Part shown: in pieces, positions 309 through 11,898 of the stretch
Layout of the letters: every line of letters begins with the position of its first letter
Position numbering within the stretch: position 1 is the first letter of the stretch
Source of the DNA: a virus
Direction: 5' to 3' (one strand)
DNA length: 11,898 nucleotides
Virus record (IMG/VR): IMGVR_UViG_3300045988_036506
The notes under the pieces: model-generated
The model's database searches: none
What the model was told of the DNA's origin: nothing
Seen by the model: the letters and a program-made list of their open reading frames with translations, nothing else
Made by a program: the position numbers and the translations under genes

Positions 309-367
309 GAGGGGTGAATTGTTAAAAAGATTAAAATTAAAACTTTTACACTATTTAACAAAAATAA

Positions 368-399
368 TTTGGTGGTTTCGTAAAAAAGTCGTATCTTTG
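368..399 (+). promoter_or_regulatory. Left-arm promoter, Bacteroidota sigma-A type (-33 TTTG, -7 TAtcTTTG)
   Basis: TTTG lies at 368..371, followed by a 20-nt spacer and TATCTTTG at 392..399. This matches the published Bacteroides consensus TTTG/TAnnTTTG. A near-identical copy sits at the right end and a third at 6637..6668. Confidence 0.65.
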
Positions 400-445
400 C
401 AACGTGATTAAGAAAAAGAAGTCAAACCCCTTAAAATATAAAATT

Positions 446-1015: not shown

Positions 1016-1441
1016 ATGAAAAAGATTAAGTATTTTAAATTGTCTGAGTTTATCAACTCAGCAACTGCAAAACGTTTGGGTATTGATAATATGCCATCGT
1101 TTGAAGTAGTTGACAACTTGAATCGTTTGGCTGATTATTTAGACGGTATTCGTGCAAAGTTGGGTAAGCCTATTTTAATTAGTAGTGGGTATCGTTGCCC
1201 GATGCTTAATAAGGCGGTCGGGGGTGTTGTTAACAGCCAACACCAAAAAGGTTTAGCTGCTGATTTGGTTTGTGCTGATATGAAATCTTTGGAAAAGGTT
1301 CTCAGAGAAACAGGCGGTTTTGACCAACTTATTAAAGAACACCGCAAAGGTTCTCCGAACTCGTTTTGGTTTCACGTTTCAGTTTGTGCACGCAACGGCA
1401 AACCACGAAATCAAATAATTATGAATCTAGAAAAGAAATGA
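1016..1441 (+). CDS. Endolysin, zinc peptidase M15 family (D-Ala-D-Ala carboxypeptidase or L-Ala-D-Glu peptidase-like, Peptidase_M15_3 type)
   Basis: The translation shows FKLSEF...TA..LGIDN.P, then SGYRCPMLNKAVGGVVNSQHQKGLAADL (the H-x6-D zinc-ligand motif) and a distal WFHVS histidine. This is the characteristic layout of phage M15 peptidoglycan peptidases. There is no signal peptide or transmembrane segment. Confidence 0.88.
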   Translation: MKKIKYFKLSEFINSATAKRLGIDNMPSFEVVDNLNRLADYLDGIRAKLGKPILISSGYRCPMLNKAVGGVVNSQHQKGLAADLVCADMKSLEKVLRETGGFDQLIKEHRKGSPNSFWFHVSVCARNGKPRNQIIMNLEKK

Positions 1442-3572: not shown

Positions 3573-4757
3573 TTAGGCTACAAAGAACACGACAAAATTC
3601 TCGTTTGTGTCATTGAAGTAACCTGCATCGAATTTGTAGTAATTGTTAAAAAATTCTGCTTTGGCGTTGTAGTTGGTTGTTACTCGCTTATCTAAGTTTG
3701 TAACACCGAGAGCGTCACGGTCAAACATCACGCCCAAAACGCCACCGATAGAAACGGTCGCACCGCTTGCAGATTTCACATCTACCTTTGAAACGTTGGC
3801 GAAAGCGTAATCTTTTCCCGATGCTTGCCAACTTGCAACGGTTTCAGCCTGTGGCAAAAGAACATTCTCGTTATGGAATGTATCTGCATACAGGTAGGTT
3901 TTTGCAGCTGCTGCAAAGTCGGACAAAAGAACGGTGTGCAAAACGTCTTTTGGTGTGAAACGTTCCTTACCGCCAACGTTGAACAAAGTTGAAATTGTTT
4001 GCAAACGGTCGGCATACAAGCCCATCATATATGCAGCAAAACGGATAAAATCGGGGGTTGTTACCGCAACATTTGCAGCCAACGATGCACCAGTCTTCTC
4101 GTTGTAAAGTTTCAACAGGTTAACACAACGAACGGTTGATGCACTAGCATAATCAACTTTTTCGTTAGTTGATGCAACGAAACCGAATGCGGCCTTGTCG
4201 GCATCCAGCGTTTCAGCAATCATATTGTTAATCGTGCGCATAATAAGAGCATCGGTCTTGATAGTCATTGACTTCTCAACTGCTGAATAAATCATTGACA
4301 AAAAGCCATTCAGCTGTTCTGCGCTGCTGAAAGATTCCCTTACCTGTCGTTCGGTGATAGACACGGGAACTTCAAAAGTTACCTTTGAGTTAAAGAACTT
4401 AGCTGAAACGGTCGGTTTGTGGAACACGTCTTGGCTGTATTCCTTACCGTCAGTAAGATTCCACGTGTCGTTCTCTTCTGCTTTGGGAACGTCAGCGGAA
4501 ATTTTTTCCAATACAGACCCAAATTCCCAAGCATCCATCAACACGCTAGGAACTTTACCCGAATAAGGGCGGTTAACGAAAATCACTTTGCCGATGTGGT
4601 TTACAAGTGATTTCACGTAATTGTCAACGGCTTTCTGATTAAACACCTCATTACCCAAATCAACAATACCTGTAAGGTCTTCATGTACCAAATCGGTTTT
4701 GCCTAAAACTTCACCTGAAACGCTATTAATAAGCGTGTAAATTTGCTTTACTTCCAT
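3573..4757 (-). CDS. Major capsid protein (HK97-fold, phi29 gp8-like N-terminal and core regions)
   Basis: The 394-aa product lies downstream of the portal. DNYVKSLVNHIGKVIF and FSSAEQLNGFLSMIYSAVEKSMTIKTDALIMRTI resemble my recollection of phi29 gp8 ([47 protein letters not shown]). There is no Ig-like C-terminal extension. Confidence 0.78.
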   Translation of the reverse strand: MEVKQIYTLINSVSGEVLGKTDLVHEDLTGIVDLGNEVFNQKAVDNYVKSLVNHIGKVIFVNRPYSGKVPSVLMDAWEFGSVLEKISADVPKAEENDTWNLTDGKEYSQDVFHKPTVSAKFFNSKVTFEVPVSITERQVRESFSSAEQLNGFLSMIYSAVEKSMTIKTDALIMRTINNMIAETLDADKAAFGFVASTNEKVDYASASTVRCVNLLKLYNEKTGASLAANVAVTTPDFIRFAAYMMGLYADRLQTISTLFNVGGKERFTPKDVLHTVLLSDFAAAAKTYLYADTFHNENVLLPQAETVASWQASGKDYAFANVSKVDVKSASGATVSIGGVLGVMFDRDALGVTNLDKRVTTNYNAKAEFFNNYYKFDAGYFNDTNENFVVFFVA

Positions 4758-4774: not shown

Positions 4775-5344
4775 TTAATAAATATCTATTGTTAACTCTT
4801 TTGCAAGTTCTGCGATAACTTGCATTTTGAAATTTGTTCTTCTGAGAATCATTTCTTTTTGAACAATTTCACTAACAGGAACACCATTCGGCAAACTGTT
4901 CTTAACAGTTGTTTTCGTGCTCGTTTCTTGTCGGTTTCCTGTGGAATCTCTTTGCTGCTTTGTGTCATTTCCGAAATCTCCATTATTAAACGTTACACTT
5001 GAATCGACCGTGCTATTATTACCTGTTTCGTCAACGGTGTTATTTGTTGTTTCCGTCAACTTTTCAGTAACAGGGTTTAATGGGTCATATTCGTTATTAA
5101 ACACTTGAATTTGTTTTTGCCATTCGTCAAACTTAACTGCTATGATACTTTTTACAATATCATTTGCAGTTTCGGGCGTAACGGCATTTACCAGCGTTCT
5201 GTTTCCATATTTGAAACGAAAATCAATATCAATCAAAAGCGGGTCATCTTCATTAAATATTGATTTGTACAAAGCAGGAAACAGGGGTTTAAAGATTTTT
5301 TCAAACAAACCATTTTCACCCGTGAAAAGTTCATTAATTGTCAT
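4775..5344 (-). CDS. Structural-module protein (189 aa), possibly a scaffolding or head-completion protein
   Basis: It lies between the portal and capsid genes, the canonical scaffold position. The middle is polar and low-complexity (N/T/S/D/Q-rich). The start overlaps the portal stop by 11 nt. No diagnostic motif was found. Confidence 0.55.
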   Translation of the reverse strand: MTINELFTGENGLFEKIFKPLFPALYKSIFNEDDPLLIDIDFRFKYGNRTLVNAVTPETANDIVKSIIAVKFDEWQKQIQVFNNEYDPLNPVTEKLTETTNNTVDETGNNSTVDSSVTFNNGDFGNDTKQQRDSTGNRQETSTKTTVKNSLPNGVPVSEIVQKEMILRRTNFKMQVIAELAKELTIDIY

Positions 5345-6410
5345 CTTTGTTTTCTTTTTCTTCTTTTTCTTCTGTTTCTTCTGTTTCCGTTTCTGTTTCT
5401 TCTGTTTCTGTTTCTGTTTCTTCTGTTTCTTCTGTTTCTTCTGTTTCTGTTTCCGTTTCTTCTGTTTCTTGCGTTTCTTCTGTTTCGTTTTCCGTTACAG
5501 TGTCAACGTCTTCTGTATCGGTGTGGTCGTGCCCGTCTTCTGTGGCTTTGAGCAACGATAAATAATTTTCGTGTTCAATCTTCCAGCTAGACCCCAAAGT
5601 TACGGTTATGTCCGTGCCGAACATTTCGTTAACACGTTTCACACCCTCAACACGTTCATTTAGCATTGAATCAACGAACGGCATTAAAGCGTCAATATTC
5701 ATTGAAACCTCTTGCGTGTTCAAACGTTCACGTTTCATATTATAGTTTGCATTCAAACCTAAATCGTTGAACATTGATGCTTTGTAATACTGCAAAAGTT
5801 CAATTAATTGCCCGATTTGCTGGTTTCCCTGTGTCGGTGGGGTCTGCAGGTTAACACCTTTGAAAAAGGCATTTTCCCCGATTACTGAGAAATCACCGTT
5901 CAAAATCTTCTGCAAAAAAGATTCTGCGCTTTGTTTTGTTTTATCATCACTAGCAGAAATAAGCATTGTGATTCTAGTTAAAATACTAGCCAAATTAAGC
6001 GTTATTGTTGCGTCGGTGTAAAGAACGCCATATTTGCCAATTAACGGCAAAAGTGAATCTGCAAACGGTGTGTTGTTGATAACGACAATATCGGAATCAA
6101 TTTTAAACGTTTTGTTCACATTCAACCACGGGTTTGCTACAACGTAATATTTGCCGTGATAATAGGCATCACATTCACCAACCCGTGTTCCATTCAGTGC
6201 ATACAGTTCACCGTTCACTTCTGCTATTCCAACGTTACCCGATGTCTGCAGAATCTTTTCAAGTTCAACGGGCGGCATCGTTTCGGGTGCGCCCGTATAT
6301 TCAAACATCCTTGAAGTCATACAAAGAACTCGTTGCATAAACGTGAATAATGCTGAATCTTTGTTTTTAACTTCTGTTTGATACCTGTTGTATAAGTTTT
6401 CTTTCTCCAT
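5334..6410 (-). CDS. Portal (head-tail connector) protein, phi29 gp10-like, with an acidic Glu/Thr repeat C-terminal tail
   Basis: [31 protein letters not shown] resembles phi29 gp10 [57 protein letters not shown] resembles [26 protein letters not shown]. Both phi29 strings are recalled from memory. The last ~60 aa read ...[52 protein letters not shown]. Confidence 0.85.
   Translation of the reverse strand: [358 protein letters not shown]
5345..5490. repeat. Imperfect GTTTCT / TCT (6- and 3-nt) tandem repeat tract encoding the portal acidic tail
   Basis: The plus strand reads ...ttctgtttcttctgtttccgtttctgtttcttctgtttctgtttctgtttcttctgtttc.... It also generates the spurious F/C-rich and S/V-rich plus-strand ORFs 5142..5561 and 5338..5565. 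Confidence 0.9.
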
Positions 6411-6604
6411 TATTTAACATGCGTTTTAATTAAGGTACAAAGTTCTGTTAACACCTTAGTGTTACTTTGCACGGTTTCGTTCAACTTGTCGGTTTCCTGC
6501 TGGTGGCGTTCGTTTTGTTTCTCCATATAGAAGAAAAGGGCGATACAAACCGCTACAGGAAAACCAACGTTACCAACTAGGGATACAATAGCGTTCACAT
6601 CCAT
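6410..6604 (-). CDS. Small single-pass membrane protein (64 aa), a holin candidate with possible YvrJ-family resemblance
   Basis: The N-terminal hydrophobic segment IVSLVGNVGFPVAVCIALFFY is followed by a charged helical tail. It is the first gene after the late promoter, and its stop overlaps the portal ATG by 1 nt. The LVGNVGFP...Y..EK pattern recalls YvrJ-family proteins from memory only. Confidence 0.6.
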   Translation of the reverse strand: MDVNAIVSLVGNVGFPVAVCIALFFYMEKQNERHQQETDKLNETVQSNTKVLTELCTLIKTHVK

Positions 6605-6636
6605 ATAGCAAAATTTAACTTTGTTATTTTACGATG

Positions 6637-6668
6637 CAAAGATAATACTATTATTTGGTATTACCAAA
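6637..6668 (-). promoter_or_regulatory. Late (structural-operon) promoter, Bacteroidota sigma-A type
   Basis: The minus strand reads TTTG (6668..6665), a 20-nt spacer, then TATCTTTG (6644..6637), followed by CATCGT. Spacing and the extended -7 box (TATCTTTGCAnCGT) match the two terminal promoters. The -33 box lies within the 21-bp palindrome at 6651..6671. Confidence 0.65.
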
Positions 6669-6671
6669 TAA

Positions 6672-6715
6672 AACGGGGGAAAAGTGTTCCACGTGAAACA
6701 TTTTTAACCCCCGTT
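6672..6715 (-). terminator. Terminator hairpin after the early operon, with a CACGTGAAACATTT motif copy embedded in the stem
   Basis: AACGGGGG (6672..6679) pairs with CCCCCGTT (6708..6715). The interior TGTTCCACGTGAAACA is largely self-complementary. On the minus strand the hairpin is followed by UUAUUUGG. It lies 9 nt after the ATPase stop codon. Confidence 0.7.
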
Positions 6716-6723
6716 AACAGATA

Positions 6724-7863
6724 TTAAGTAATAATGTTACTTCTTGCGCTTGCCATCAAGTAATTACGCACAATTTCACCTATTTCGTTATTTTGATAAA
6801 ATACCTTATCGGTTGCGAAATACTTCGTTATCTGAGATTCTACAAACGTTGCATTGCTCAACAACTTTCGCTTATAGTTCGGCTTGCCGTTCATCTGCAG
6901 CGAATAAATCAAACTGTTGTCCGTGTCCTTAATCGGGGTTGTCTTGCTGTGAATGTAAATGAAGTTATTCACCCCCGTTTCTTCGTCTTCCAACTGAATA
7001 ACGTTGCCCTGTAAGGTCATTTCGTTAAACTGAATGTAAAAGACAAACAATACGTCATTCGGTTTGTATTTTACAGGCAAATGGGGATATGCAGCGAGTT
7101 CCCATTTACCGCCCGTAATCATTTGCAAATTCTCATTGTCGAAACAGAAATACTTGTTGCTCGCCTTGTGCTTGACAATCGTGCTGCAATATTCTACTGC
7201 AACGGTTGCACCGTGTTCACCGAATTTATAAATATCTATTGTTCCCTGTTCCATTGCACGAACTTGTTTCAATCCCATTTCTGAGAAATACGGGCAAAAC
7301 TGATTCACGGTGTTACCCAGCATAAAAACTTTAACATCGTTTCTCTGTCGAATAATCGTGCTTAACAGGTTCATATACAGCATAAATTCATCGGGTAAAT
7401 AATAACGTCTTGTCAGGAACTCATCAAATACCACGGTTGTTATATTCGGGTAACTGCTGGATTTTTCGTGTTCCTGTTCTGATAAACAGAAACCAAAACA
7501 AAACGGGGTGCTGTCGGGTACACGTTTCTTTGTTTCGGCATCGTAGGACGAAAGAAACCATTTACCCGAAATATAAAACACTTCGTTAAACTTACCACCT
7601 GTCAGTTCCTGTATTACGCCATTTGCAACGTGATTTGAAAACAGACTTTCGGCACGTTTGCCCCTTAAATCTTCGCGCCATCTACGAATATACGCCATTT
7701 GCTTTCCTGTGCGCAAATATTCTTTGATGCCATACAATAACGTTGCATACGTTTTACCGTTGGAACGTTCACCAAAAATAACGTTGTAATCGGCATTCTT
7801 TGATAAAATGCGATTCAACGTGTAAAATTTCGGCGTTTCTACATTTTCTTTCTTCTGTTTCAT
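6724..7863 (-). CDS. DNA encapsidation (packaging) ATPase, phi29 gp16-like
   Basis: Walker A is FGERSNGKTYA (nt 7750..7773 encode GERSNGKT). Walker B is PNITTVVFDEFL. MAYIRRWREDL, SSSYPNITTVVFDEF and LPDEFMLYMNLLSTIIRQRNDVKVFMLGNTVNQFCPYF are collinear with phi29 gp16 FIYVRRYKPEL, SNAYPNVSTIVFDEF and IPNEVSALLNLMDTVFRNRERVRCICLSNAVSVVNPYF, recalled from memory. Confidence 0.9.
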   Translation of the reverse strand: MKQKKENVETPKFYTLNRILSKNADYNVIFGERSNGKTYATLLYGIKEYLRTGKQMAYIRRWREDLRGKRAESLFSNHVANGVIQELTGGKFNEVFYISGKWFLSSYDAETKKRVPDSTPFCFGFCLSEQEHEKSSSYPNITTVVFDEFLTRRYYLPDEFMLYMNLLSTIIRQRNDVKVFMLGNTVNQFCPYFSEMGLKQVRAMEQGTIDIYKFGEHGATVAVEYCSTIVKHKASNKYFCFDNENLQMITGGKWELAAYPHLPVKYKPNDVLFVFYIQFNEMTLQGNVIQLEDEETGVNNFIYIHSKTTPIKDTDNSLIYSLQMNGKPNYKRKLLSNATFVESQITKYFATDKVFYQNNEIGEIVRNYLMASARSNIIT

Positions 7864-7864
7864 A

Positions 7865-10072
7865 TTATTCTTTCTTTAATCTGATTCCCATTAAATAATT
7901 AATATAAAGAACTGAAAGACTTAAAGTGTACCCCGTTGGCTCTAAGTGAACACCAGTTAACGTGTCGTAACTTGAAACCGTACCTTTGTAATCTTTTATC
8001 GTTCCCGTCTGTTCATAATCAATATATGTGTGAATGTTCTTACCTGTTGCCGATGGCGGTATATCTAGATAATTTGTGAATGCGTCAAATATCCCACTTT
8101 CACCAAACGTTTCTAACATATACGGGATAGCAGATTTTTTGTTAACGCCCGAAACGGTCATTGAGTAATCGTAATCTTTGCCGTTTACTGTAAGGGCGTT
8201 TTCTTCCTGTACCATATAGCGTTTTGCACCTAAAGTTTTGAAACGGGTGTAACGCCCCTCATAGTCCCAAACCCCCAACGGTTTTGCGATTCCCCTTATC
8301 GTGACGGGTTCAACCTTTTCAAACGGTATTTTATGATGCTTACAGGCGGCACGTAATTTTCTTTGCGCTAAATCGTTGTAGGCCTTGAAATATTCTTTGT
8401 GTGCATCACCGTTCATTATTTTAACGGAATCTGTGTCACTGTATATGTAATCGTCACCACATTCCGAAATACCCGTAAAAAGGTTGCGTCTGGCATAAGC
8501 GGTAACATAAATACCCCACGGGTAAAACAAAAAGCGGTTTTTACTATCATTATATTTATTTAGCATTACTAATTGTTTTTCGCCTGTAAGGTGTTCAATA
8601 TCCCACGTTTCACCATCACATAAAATTTCATCACGCAACGGGTTTGTAACACACATACCGTAACAACTGTTCAGCATTTCTTTGCTATTCAAATACTCAA
8701 CCTCTTTTCCCTTAACACCTTTTAATTTTGTTTTCATTTCATACAGGTGCAGAATAGATTCTACAAATTCGGTCGGCAAATATTCTTTTCGGTAGCATAT
8801 CATTCGCCCGATTCTTATTTGTTCCCACGTGTAAAACTGTGAAAACACTTTGTAATCTATTTCTGTAATAGTCATACATATTTTCTTAGCACAAACCAAA
8901 CGCCCGTTGTTTTCGGAAACATTTTCTTTCACGAAGCATTTACTAACAGAAATTGGATTCTCGTTTTCTGATTTTGCAAAAATGTTTGTTATCTCTACAT
9001 CAAACACGCAACAGAATTTACTACACATAAACTCAAATTGTTTCATTGATTTAACAGGAACAACAACACCCGTGCTCATCGGAAACTTTTCTGAAACCAT
9101 CACATACGGGTAACTACTGGTAAAATCGTAACTGTCTACGTTTTCTATAACTTCATCGGTATATTTTGCGTTGGCGTGTGTAAAACCGCCCGAAAACGCC
9201 CGTTGTAACATTGCAAATTCTTCCATACCTGTTATATTCAAAGAATGAATCTTATCAATGTATTTAAAGTTTGGAATCGTTTTGCCTGTTTCGTCAGTTG
9301 CCTTAAAACATACCGAACGGCAATATTTACGCACAAACCCCGTTTTTGTAACCGGTAAACGTGTTATTCCTTTGTACTGTTCGATTAATTCCTGTATGTA
9401 ACACATCACCACTTTTATATCATTCAAGCAATAACCAATTTCTTTTTGCGTTAACGGTGTTCTACTGTGACGTAACAAACTGTAATCTAAATCACCTACC
9501 AACTTTTCACATTTATATTTGTGAAGCTGTTCACCCAATTTCGCCAACGAATAACCCGAAAGCAAATAAGAACATCGGAACTCTAGACCCGTTTTTGTTA
9601 CACCGTAAATCGGTTTACGCAAATCTATTGAGAAAACTTTTTCCCAATCTAACATTTCACGGAAAAATTGGAACTCGTATGCCAAATTGTGAACGTATAT
9701 GATAATGCGTTTCTTTGGGCAAAGTTTCAATATATCCACGATTTCGGATAACATTTGCAAAAATTCATCCCACGTTCTGCCAATTATGCAAAAACCGTTT
9801 ATTCCAAATTGCCAAACATACATTAAAGAACATTTTTCCATTTTGGTTTGCTTGCCGCCTAATTTCATATAACGTTCGTAACTGTATGTTTCCCCGTCTT
9901 CATCCCTGTAAAATGAAGTTGTTTCAATATCGAAAGATACAGGCACGTTTAAGAACTTTTCGCCCTTATTGTTGCCTGTAAAATTCTTTTCATTCACCGC
10001 CAAAGATAAAACCTTTGCAATATCTTTAGGCGTGTAAATTTCTGTATGTAGTTCAAAGGGTATTTTCTTCAT
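7865..10072 (-). CDS. Protein-primed family-B DNA polymerase (735 aa)
   Basis: All hallmark motifs are present in order. They are ExoI FDIETT (D48/E50), ExoII HNLAYEFQF (N129), ExoIII YCLNDIK (Y214/D218), FSGGF (the YxGG/A equivalent), motif A DFTSSYP (D316), motif B KEMLNSCYG (K464), motif C YSDTDS (nt 8426..8443, checked against the DNA) and KxY as GAKRYM (K617). Long inserts between motifs A-B and B-C fit TPR1/TPR2-type regions. Confidence 0.95.
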   Translation of the reverse strand: MKKIPFELHTEIYTPKDIAKVLSLAVNEKNFTGNNKGEKFLNVPVSFDIETTSFYRDEDGETYSYERYMKLGGKQTKMEKCSLMYVWQFGINGFCIIGRTWDEFLQMLSEIVDILKLCPKKRIIIYVHNLAYEFQFFREMLDWEKVFSIDLRKPIYGVTKTGLEFRCSYLLSGYSLAKLGEQLHKYKCEKLVGDLDYSLLRHSRTPLTQKEIGYCLNDIKVVMCYIQELIEQYKGITRLPVTKTGFVRKYCRSVCFKATDETGKTIPNFKYIDKIHSLNITGMEEFAMLQRAFSGGFTHANAKYTDEVIENVDSYDFTSSYPYVMVSEKFPMSTGVVVPVKSMKQFEFMCSKFCCVFDVEITNIFAKSENENPISVSKCFVKENVSENNGRLVCAKKICMTITEIDYKVFSQFYTWEQIRIGRMICYRKEYLPTEFVESILHLYEMKTKLKGVKGKEVEYLNSKEMLNSCYGMCVTNPLRDEILCDGETWDIEHLTGEKQLVMLNKYNDSKNRFLFYPWGIYVTAYARRNLFTGISECGDDYIYSDTDSVKIMNGDAHKEYFKAYNDLAQRKLRAACKHHKIPFEKVEPVTIRGIAKPLGVWDYEGRYTRFKTLGAKRYMVQEENALTVNGKDYDYSMTVSGVNKKSAIPYMLETFGESGIFDAFTNYLDIPPSATGKNIHTYIDYEQTGTIKDYKGTVSSYDTLTGVHLEPTGYTLSLSVLYINYLMGIRLKKE

Positions 10073-10743
10073 TATAAACCAAATTTTTCAAATTCTGATA
10101 GAATCTTTTTTAACGGTTCATCCGTTTTGAAATGGTCAACACCGTTCACGAAAGCCTCTGAATTCGGGTCTTTTGCTATTTGTTCGATAGCTGCATCTAA
10201 GGCGTTTTCAATTTTAACGGCATCGTCTTCGATTTGGTCGGACACGTCACGGGATTCTTGTTCAAGTTCACCCGTAAAATCTTTGTATTGCATTAAGTAT
10301 TGTTCCAAAAATCGTTCATCGGAAACACTTGCAATTTTACCCATCAATTTGTCTTGCATCAACTTAAATTCTTCATCATTTAATTTGTAAGACTTCTTTA
10401 AATGGTTTGAATATTCACGTGTACCACTTGCCGTTGATGTAGGCTGTTGCAAAAATGAAATCGCTTTGGAATATTCGATTTTTAAATCGTTCCAATCGTG
10501 TTTCATCGAAAACTTTGTGAATCGCTTAATATCACCCTTATTTAACGCAACAACTGCGGGCGAAACAAAACCAGACCTTTCCACATTCTGAATGCGCCTG
10601 TTTGCCTGTTGAAACACACGGGCGATTTCTTTGCGCAAATAGCCACGGGATTCTATTGCATCCATAATTTGCTTGTCAACGTGTATTTTTGCCGTTGATG
10701 CAAACGTTCTTTTTGAAAACCCAATCGGATTTAACTTTGCCAT
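10072..10743 (-). CDS. Putative terminal protein (223 aa)
   Basis: It lies immediately upstream of the polymerase, with a 1-nt stop/start overlap, as in phi29 gene 3 and gene 2. The N-terminal half is basic and the C-terminal half strongly acidic (ELEQESRDVSDQIEDDAVKIE...). The C-terminus KILSEFEKFGL recalls phi29 TP KILSYLEQY...KGF. Similarity is weak and recalled, and the priming residue is not identified. Confidence 0.6.
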   Translation of the reverse strand: MAKLNPIGFSKRTFASTAKIHVDKQIMDAIESRGYLRKEIARVFQQANRRIQNVERSGFVSPAVVALNKGDIKRFTKFSMKHDWNDLKIEYSKAISFLQQPTSTASGTREYSNHLKKSYKLNDEEFKLMQDKLMGKIASVSDERFLEQYLMQYKDFTGELEQESRDVSDQIEDDAVKIENALDAAIEQIAKDPNSEAFVNGVDHFKTDEPLKKILSEFEKFGL

Positions 10744-10771: not shown

Positions 10772-10811
10772 ACGGGGGTAACAATAACTTTTAATTACTG
10801 TTTACCCCCGT
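10772..10811 (-). terminator. Intrinsic terminator or attenuator between the small early genes and the terminal protein/polymerase genes
   Basis: The minus-strand RNA would read ACGGGGGUAA-...-UUACCCCCGU (10-bp stem) followed by UUUUAUUUCAUUU. Its G5/C5 stem arms match those of the 6672..6715 hairpin. Confidence 0.7.
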
Positions 10812-10838: not shown

Positions 10839-11204
10839 CTACTTATCTACAAAGGTAATACCGTAACACTTTTTGGTGTGCGATTCATATTCATAAATCG
10901 TGTAACCAACTTTGTTTGCTTTGATAGCGTCAACCGCCTCACTATTAGCGAGAATCTCTCGCACCGTGTCACCTGTGAACTGTGGCAAATTCACAAGACG
11001 CTTGTTTTCTGCGTCAATAATTACAGGTGAATCGCCCAACTGTGATTTGTGAACGTACATACCATTGACAGGGTGTACTACATCACCGCCACCGTCTTTT
11101 TTACTGTTGTAAATGTCGGTCAACTTCACAAACGGAAAATCGGTCGTATCAATACCAAAACTAGTCTTATTGAAAGTACTAGCAAAACTAAAACCCTTAG
11201 CCAT
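10839..11204 (-). CDS. Early protein (121 aa), possibly a single-stranded or double-stranded DNA-binding protein
   Basis: The ORF is clean, with an ATG start and a terminator downstream. Its size and early-operon position parallel phi29 p5 (124 aa). No diagnostic motif was found, so the function is positional inference only. Confidence 0.5.
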   Translation of the reverse strand: MAKGFSFASTFNKTSFGIDTTDFPFVKLTDIYNSKKDGGGDVVHPVNGMYVHKSQLGDSPVIIDAENKRLVNLPQFTGDTVREILANSEAVDAIKANKVGYTIYEYESHTKKCYGITFVDK

Positions 11205-11420: not shown

Positions 11421-11469
11421 AATTACCTAATTTAAATTGTTAAACTTATATTGTTTCTTAAACACGGTG

Positions 11470-11501
11470 CAAAGATACAACGATTTTGCGAAACCACCAA
11501 A
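11470..11501 (-). promoter_or_regulatory. Right-arm early promoter, Bacteroidota sigma-A type
   Basis: The minus strand reads TTTG (11501..11498), a 20-nt spacer, then TATCTTTG (11477..11470), followed by CACCGTG. The 53-nt block 11463..11515 matches 354..406 at 47 of 53 positions in inverted orientation. Confidence 0.65.
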
Positions 11502-11557
11502 TTATTTTCGTTAAAAAGTCTTAAAGAAATAAATTAACTGTTGTTAACACTTGTAAC

Positions 11558-11640
11558 GGTCCACGTGAAACATTTGTAACATCACCCCTCATTTGTTTCA
11601 CGTGAAACATTTGTCGCCACTGTTCCACGTGAAACATTTG
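11558..11640. promoter_or_regulatory. Three copies of the CACGTGAAACATTT motif at the right end, one outside the ITR
   Basis: GGTCCACGTGAAACATTT lies at 11558..11575, inboard of the ITR boundary, with no counterpart on the left. The ITR copies lie at 11591..11611 and 11621..11640. The cores are at 11562, 11599 and 11626. Confidence 0.6.
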
Positions 11641-11898
11641 AAACATTATTTTTGTGAAAGTTTAACAAAAGTAACGGTGTGCTAAATGTGTTAAATGTGT
11701 TAAATGTGTTAAATGTGTTAAATGCGTTAAATGCGTTAAAGAATCGTAAATCCGGCTCGCAGCAAAAAGCGTGCCAAAGTGTGCCAAAGTGTGTTAAAGA
11801 ATCGTAAATCCGGCTCGCAGCAAAAAGCGTGCCAAACTGTTTTAATTAGAGTTAAATTTTGTTGGGAAATGTTAAATTTGGGTGCCTAGTGTACCTTT
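11582..11898. repeat. Right inverted terminal repeat (ITR-R), 317 bp
   Basis: It is the exact reverse complement of 1..317. It contains the mirrored 9-bp array (11681..11734) and the mirrored 44-bp direct repeats (11735..11778 and 11793..11836). Confidence 0.97.

Follow-up and report, generated by a model that had tools for sequence, protein, structure and literature searches.

Predicted Bacteroidota-type promoters in an uncultured phi29-like phage suggest a gut Bacteroidota host

Next to the left end of the uncultured phage IMGVR_UViG_3300045988_036506, ahead of its first gene, lies a non-coding stretch containing the element TTTG-N20-TATCTTTG. Which polymerase would read such an element, and in which host, is the question that this locus raises. 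A sequence-only reading had attributed it, together with two further copies, to promoters of the Bacteroidota -33/-7 type, and had proposed a Bacteroidota host on this ground. We analysed the window, that is the whole stretch of 11,898 bp, together with its relatives.

The window is a complete and linear phi29-like genome of 14 genes, whose perfect inverted terminal repeats (ITRs) of 317 nt extend to both termini (1-317 and 11582-11898, 100% complementary to each other). It begins with AAAGGTA, which we take to resemble the AAAGTA end of phi29, and by analogy the base repeat at positions 1-10 fits a sliding-back initiation of protein-primed replication. Several of the features that define a phi29-like protein-primed podophage were found. 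Besides the linear genome with ITRs, these are a family B DNA polymerase of the protein-primed type (7865-10072, minus strand; PF03175; phrog_1907, E = 9.6e-72), a gp16-type packaging ATPase (6724-7863, minus; PF05894, E = 1.2e-23), a gp10-like connector (5334-6410, minus; PF05352) and a phi29-type major capsid protein (3573-4757, minus; PF25622, E = 2e-55), the four Pfam matches all exceeding the curated cut-offs. A holin is encoded by the first gene of the late operon (6410-6604, minus; phrog_4898, E = 9e-8), and a single-domain Peptidase_M15_3 endolysin, recognised by family match, by 1016-1441 (plus). The 223-aa product of 10072-10743 (minus) is a terminal protein candidate by its position directly upstream of the polymerase gene; it is syntenic with gp02 of phage astrithr, and gave no family match in profile searches. 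The tail protein gave a single weak phage match. No packaging RNA was found with Rfam at E <= 1, a search which a divergent RNA would escape, and the Rfam matches obtained on a terminator hairpin were spurious. Finally, the 14 genes, several lacking any family match, include no recognisable RNA polymerase or sigma factor gene, so that the phage most likely relies on host transcription signals.

Two genes were found to differ in length from their counterparts in relatives. The 3′ end of the connector gene (5334-5560, minus) is a run of 9- and 12-nt repeats encoding an acidic Thr/Glu tail, and the protein is 358 aa long here compared to 345 aa in the related contig L002, meaning that the number of repeats probably varies. 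The gene after the lysin (1438-1527, plus) encodes about 29 aa, compared to 82 aa in close relatives (L118, 1208-1456), and therefore appears to be truncated in this genome.

Exact matches to TTTG-N20-TATCTTTG were found at the three places previously described, 368-399 (plus), 6637-6668 (minus) and 11470-11501 (minus), where 0.01 was expected, and 0 of 200 shuffles reached 3. At all three sites the spacer between TTTG and the -7 box is 20 nt. The copies also have an extended box in common, as had been noticed: all of them run on as TATCTTTGCAnCGT, the extended boxes being TATCTTTGCAACGT, TATCTTTGCATCGT and TATCTTTGCACCGT. All three are non-coding, and each is oriented toward the operon downstream. 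This location ahead of an operon was correctly seen by the sequence-only reading, but not the distance between box end and first ATG, given as 25-45 nt and measured here as 46, 32 and 49 nt for the left, internal and right copies, respectively. The consensus promoter of Bacteroidota consists of a -7 box TAnnTTTG(Y) at -12 to -5, and of a TTTG near -33 (PMC7366714, PMC9723704, PMC12632263). The three sites fit it in the -7 box, in the pyrimidine that follows the box and in the 20-nt spacing to TTTG, for which about 19-21 nt would be expected; box and following base read TATCTTTGC at 3 sites out of 3, which fits TANNTTTGY with Y = C. A scan for sigma-70-type promoters placed none of its better matches within the three gaps.

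The looser pattern TTTG-N17-22-TAnnTTTG yielded 4 matches for 1.3 expected, a number reached by 11 of 200 shuffles, and TAnnTTTG is itself over-represented across this T-rich genome (35 matches for 18 expected). As the excess of the loose consensus is modest, significance comes from position and from the TATC box that the copies share, rather than from this consensus alone. The fourth loose match, TTTG-N19-TAGTTTTG (11156-11186, minus), is placed within the 5′ end of gene 10839-11204 and is also seen in many relatives. It may be due to chance or correspond to an internal promoter.

The three sites are real, but they are not three independent promoters, as had been counted. The perfect ITR continues inward as a degenerate extension, in which 317-415 pairs with 11454-11552 at 81% complementarity. 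Both terminal sites are carried by this extension and are therefore copies of one element, which leaves two independent promoters.

Relatives of this phage were readily found. In IMG/VR, 367 contigs match, and the best 80 of these 367 have at least 88% capsid identity. Genome collections gave 32 related contigs (L001 to L032), which derive from gut and faecal assemblies. A large protein search with the lysin gave more than 1,500 lysin clusters; all of the 120 listed are on contigs of at most 12 kb, and only the same phage lineage was present among the matches listed. The lineage is abundant in metagenomes, and the Astrithrvirus-related radiation around it is common in those of the gut. No match was obtained when public assemblies were queried for the exact capsid protein, or when the complete genome was compared to the phage collection by megablast.

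In the close set of 83 genomes, whose capsid identity is 88% or more, the full motif was present in 79 of 83 genomes at the early (right) position, in 82 of 83 at the late position and in 77 of 83 at the left end. Conservation in these genomes is 90% or more for the -33 TTTGG and for the TATCTTTGCA box, and parts of the spacer and of the downstream sequence vary. More diverged relatives (L003, L004, L005, L025 and L030), with 69-80% capsid identity and different flanks, have a TAnnTTTG box 17 to 54 nt ahead of the first ATG in both the early and the late operons, the late one being at the matching position. The exact TTTG-N20 spacing is found in this genome, L001, L002, L025 and L030, and the late promoters of L003 and L004 have no TTTG at -33.

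Translation signals were then compared, a Shine-Dalgarno sequence being scored as AGGA, GGAG or GAGG at -18 to -5. None of the 15 ORFs of this genome has one, which extends to all of them what had been noted for the start codons first inspected. Contigs L001-L006, L025 and L030 have 0 to 1 per genome, and the best 80 of 367 IMG/VR relatives have 28 for 1,123 genes, which is the background level. Values were 42-77% of genes in phages of Salmonella, Acinetobacter, Vibrio and Amedibacillus, and 25-73% in the other relatives, including some of lower G+C. The cultured control, B. fragilis phage vB_BfrS_23, had a low value of 16%. Leaders devoid of Shine-Dalgarno had an adenine frequency of 0.62-0.72 at -14 to -12, 0.54 at -6 and 0.57-0.62 at -3, and were depleted in guanine, whereas the other relatives have a guanine peak at -13 to -9. 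This adenine pattern agrees with that published for Bacteroidota, whose leaders have no Shine-Dalgarno and adenines at -3, -6 and -11 to -15 (PMC7366714).

Upstream gaps gave the same contrast. TAnnTTTG was present in 41-43% of those of the Shine-Dalgarno-less clade and in 43% of those of the cultured B. fragilis phage vB_BfrS_23, with 0% of sigma-70-like matches in both cases. The proportions were 8% and 31%, respectively, in the proteobacterial isolates, and 4% and 15% in the other relatives. On a neighbour-joining capsid tree, the Shine-Dalgarno-less genomes make up a single clade, which nests inside the Astrithrvirus-related radiation.

The closest cultured relatives belong to this radiation. 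They are the ∼11.5-kb Astrithrvirus-like phages of Salmonella, Pectobacterium, Acinetobacter, Vibrio, Enterobacter and Shigella, among which Astrithrvirus and allies comprise Salmonella astrithr, Astrid and assan, Pectobacterium DU_PP_III, Acinetobacter Phanie and Vibrio K58 g2. Genome size (10.4-11.9 kb), the phi29-type capsid, connector, ATPase and polymerase, and gene order (small early genes, terminal-protein candidate, polymerase, ATPase, small membrane protein, connector, capsid, split tail knob) are common to the present genome and this group. Protein identity, however, is only 55-59% for the capsid and 42-46% for the polymerase, and there is no nucleotide match. A phage genus usually corresponds to ∼70% nucleotide similarity over the genome; with no megablast match, and with 59% (capsid) and 46% (polymerase) amino-acid identity to astrithr, the present phage falls outside the genus Astrithrvirus. 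Unlike it, phages of the Astrithrvirus group use Shine-Dalgarno sequences and sigma-70-like promoters and have Gammaproteobacteria as hosts; they have no gap or promoter between the ATPase and the late genes, and their lysin is on the late strand. With phi29, the present phage shares the protein-primed polymerase, the gp16 ATPase, the gp10 connector, the capsid fold, a terminal AAAG and a layout with early genes at the ends and late genes mid-genome. In contrast, the phi29 genome is 19 kb long, with ITRs of 6 bp, a packaging RNA, Shine-Dalgarno sequences and TTGACA/TATAAT promoters for sigma-A.

Compared to the promoters of B. fragilis, B. thetaiotaomicron and Flavobacterium, the three elements have in common the -7 TAnnTTTG(Y), the -33 TTTG and Shine-Dalgarno-less leaders with adenines at the same positions. 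They differ from these host promoters in being predicted, in sitting in a phage genome and in having a box, TATCTTTGCA, that is unusually uniform within close relatives.

From these elements and from the terminators, we infer a coherent transcription map, with promoter activity, start sites and timing as predicted features. Start sites were placed using a -7 box position of -12 to -5 (PMC9723704). The left-end promoter (368-400, plus) consists of TTTG at 368-371, a 20-nt spacer, TATCTTTG at 392-399 and C at 400, with a predicted start around 404, and would drive 446-691, 786-995 and the lysin gene. The internal, late promoter (6636-6668, minus; TTTG at 6668-6665, TATCTTTG at 6644-6637, C at 6636, predicted start around 6632) would drive the holin, connector, capsid and tail genes, from 6604 down to 1522. 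The right-end, early promoter (11469-11501, minus; TTTG at 11501-11498, TATCTTTG at 11477-11470, C at 11469, predicted start around 11465), which is the paralogue of the left-end one, would drive the genes from 11420 down to 10839. No promoter was found for the block composed of the terminal protein candidate, polymerase and ATPase genes, and readthrough from the right-end promoter was therefore assumed for them.

The converging lysin and late operons are separated by a bidirectional terminator (1482-1522; about -30 kcal/mol and z around -7 on either strand). An intrinsic terminator follows the ATPase gene (6672-6715, minus; stem ACGGGGG/CCCCCGU, -21.4 kcal/mol, z = -3.7), and its U-tract UUUUAUUU merges into the -33 TTTG of the late promoter. 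Another hairpin, an intrinsic terminator or attenuator followed by UUUUUAUUU (10772-10811, minus; -25.5 kcal/mol, z = -4.1), is placed between gene 10839-11204 and the gene of the terminal protein candidate.

The mechanism that we propose is that the primary sigma factor of the host, of the Bacteroidota type, would read the -33 TTTG and -7 TAnnTTTGY of the three elements, the phage carrying signals recognised by the polymerase of its host. The two ITR-related copies would direct transcription inward from either end, the right copy toward the early and replication genes, the left copy toward two small genes and the lysin. The internal promoter, directly after a terminator, would serve the holin and virion genes. 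Translation would start without Shine-Dalgarno pairing, by means of adenine-rich leaders as in Bacteroidota.

Other elements were noticed in the ITRs and near the promoters. A CACGTG palindrome (up to TGTTTCACGTGAAACA) accompanies all three promoters, on their upstream side. In the form TTTCACGTG(G/A)AA, it is present at 265-276 and 292-303, upstream of the left-end promoter, with mirror copies at 11596-11607 and 11623-11634 and a variant near 11559-11572. It is found again at 6687-6698, inside the loop of the terminator at 6672-6715 and upstream of the late promoter, as a candidate regulator site. In L025 and L030, the palindrome lies within the -33/-7 spacer of the late promoter. It is likely to bind a putative dimeric regulator of the early-to-late switch; among the small proteins, no DNA-binding family match that could explain it was found.

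The element TGGCACGCTTTTTGCT occurs twice per ITR, facing inward (65-80 and 123-138, plus; 11761-11776 and 11819-11834, minus), and is an exact fit to the sigma-54 -24/-12 consensus TGGCACG-N4-TTGCW, with 4 matches for 0.11 expected. The termini of L025 and L030 also carry it, as do 50 of the best 80 of 367 IMG/VR relatives, with TTGT in place of TTGC in some copies. The element is confined to this clade, where it is always terminal and inward, and relatives with Shine-Dalgarno sequences lack it. It may act as a sigma-54 promoter or as an origin-binding site. The ITR further contains seven tandem 9-nt units (TTTAACACA / TTTAACGCA) at 159-221, mirrored at 11678-11740, which adjoin two 58-nt direct repeats at 43-158; the 9-nt units may bind replication proteins.

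The analysis establishes which motifs are present, how far they are conserved, what the translation signals are and how relatives differ. From this we infer that the three elements are host promoters of the Bacteroidota type, and that the host is probably a gut Bacteroidota, most likely a member of the Bacteroidales, acquired through a host shift in the Astrithrvirus-related radiation. We estimate the probability of this reading at about 0.75. Promoter conservation in relatives, adenine-rich leaders devoid of Shine-Dalgarno, and the controls all support both the promoter type and the host that had been proposed, the latter as a deduction from expression signals. Bacteroidales is suggested within Bacteroidota by the gut and faecal origin of the relatives.

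Lysin homology agrees with such a host but does not discriminate further, and bin taxonomy was rejected as a host marker. Phage homologues of the lysin are from Gram-negative hosts, B. fragilis among them, and Bacteroides and Achromobacter phages tie, both at ∼46%. The scan of genome collections returned only small mis-binned phage contigs, and no prophage copies were seen. The closest relatives there, L001 and L002, are in Melainabacteria and Gastranaerophilales bins; L025 and L030 are Shine-Dalgarno-less, yet in Christensenellaceae bins, and L027 uses Shine-Dalgarno sequences, yet is in a Muribaculaceae bin. As the bin labels are scattered over many phyla and contradict the sequence signals, they were not used as host evidence. 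More generally, small phages of this radiation are routinely binned into metagenome-assembled genomes (MAGs) of unrelated phyla (Omnitrophota, Bifidobacteriaceae, Melainabacteria, Clostridia), and then stand in genome databases as bacterial contigs.

Could the host be another gut lineage that makes sparing use of Shine-Dalgarno sequences, such as the Gastranaerophilales (Melainabacteria), the box being a promoter of that lineage or a phage-specific look-alike? The binning of L001 and L002 (92% capsid identity) in this group by two separate studies, and the phage G+C of 37.5%, would agree with such a host, and the literature search yielded nothing on Melainabacteria expression signals. Nevertheless, the bin labels of the 32 related contigs conflict with the sequence signals, the box fits TANNTTTGY with the -33 TTTG at the expected spacing, and leader adenines and upstream-gap statistics equal those of a cultured Bacteroides phage, so that we consider this host unlikely.

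It is also improbable, in our opinion, that the TTTGG...TATCTTTGCA module is a site for a protein of the phage or of a helper phage, acting in replication, packaging or a transcription switch, in a proteobacterial host. Two of the three copies do adjoin the replication origins, in the ITR extension, and two other conserved elements, the palindrome and TGGCACG-N4-TTGC, cluster there too. Moreover, the cultured relative Phanie, an Acinetobacter phage, reportedly depends on a helper phage, and by analogy the present phage may likewise be controlled by one. However, the remaining copy is internal and immediately follows a terminator, with the holin gene 32 nt further on, copy orientation always follows the downstream genes, and the clade has neither sigma-70-like promoters nor Shine-Dalgarno sequences, both of which are present in the proteobacterial relatives. 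As for a chance resemblance, inflated by ITR duplication and T-rich composition, it would account for the small excess of the loose consensus, for TAnnTTTG being common genome-wide and for the paralogy of the two terminal sites. It is very hard to reconcile with the near-zero expectation for the exact motif, with a box kept in position in relatives whose flanks have diverged and not lost in most relatives, or with an upstream-gap enrichment that is absent from relatives of similar or lower G+C, and we regard it as highly improbable.

Returning to the reading of a Bacteroidota-type host, the novelty claimed for it by the sequence-only reading was overstated. In that reading, characterised phi29-like phages infect Firmicutes and their relatives; given that the closest cultured relatives infect Gammaproteobacteria, phi29-like phages outside Firmicutes were already known. 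In a review, Evseev et al. (2024) have described phi29-like phages of Gram-negative hosts, and suggested from protein homology a Bacteroidales host for another faecal phage, Bacteriophage sp. isolate 2692_55609 of cluster c30, a ∼12-kb phi29-like metagenomic phage from human faeces (PMC11476376). Compared by description, this isolate is a singleton capsid cluster near Amedibacillus phage AD70P2, whereas the Astrid group is the one nearest to the present genome. The phage collection and the literature searched yielded no cultured phi29-like phage of Bacteroidota.

A broader scenario, which we consider possible though rather doubtful, is that a very common human-gut lineage of ∼12-kb phi29-like phages moved onto Bacteroidales and rewrote all its expression signals, becoming the smallest tailed-phage type there, and that it may carry a layered control composed of paired sigma-54-type elements in each ITR and of a 12-16-bp CACGTG operator at every sigma-A promoter. 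If true, this control system would be one not described for phi29-like phages.

Should the host be a member of the Bacteroidales, no tailed phages smaller than these would be known for a phylum that is dominant in the gut. The clade offers a clean natural comparison, in which a phage backbone would have switched promoters and translation signals along with host phylum. For Bacteroides genetics, the three elements, of 32 nt each, are candidates for compact promoter parts, and expression signals can assign hosts where MAG binning misleads.
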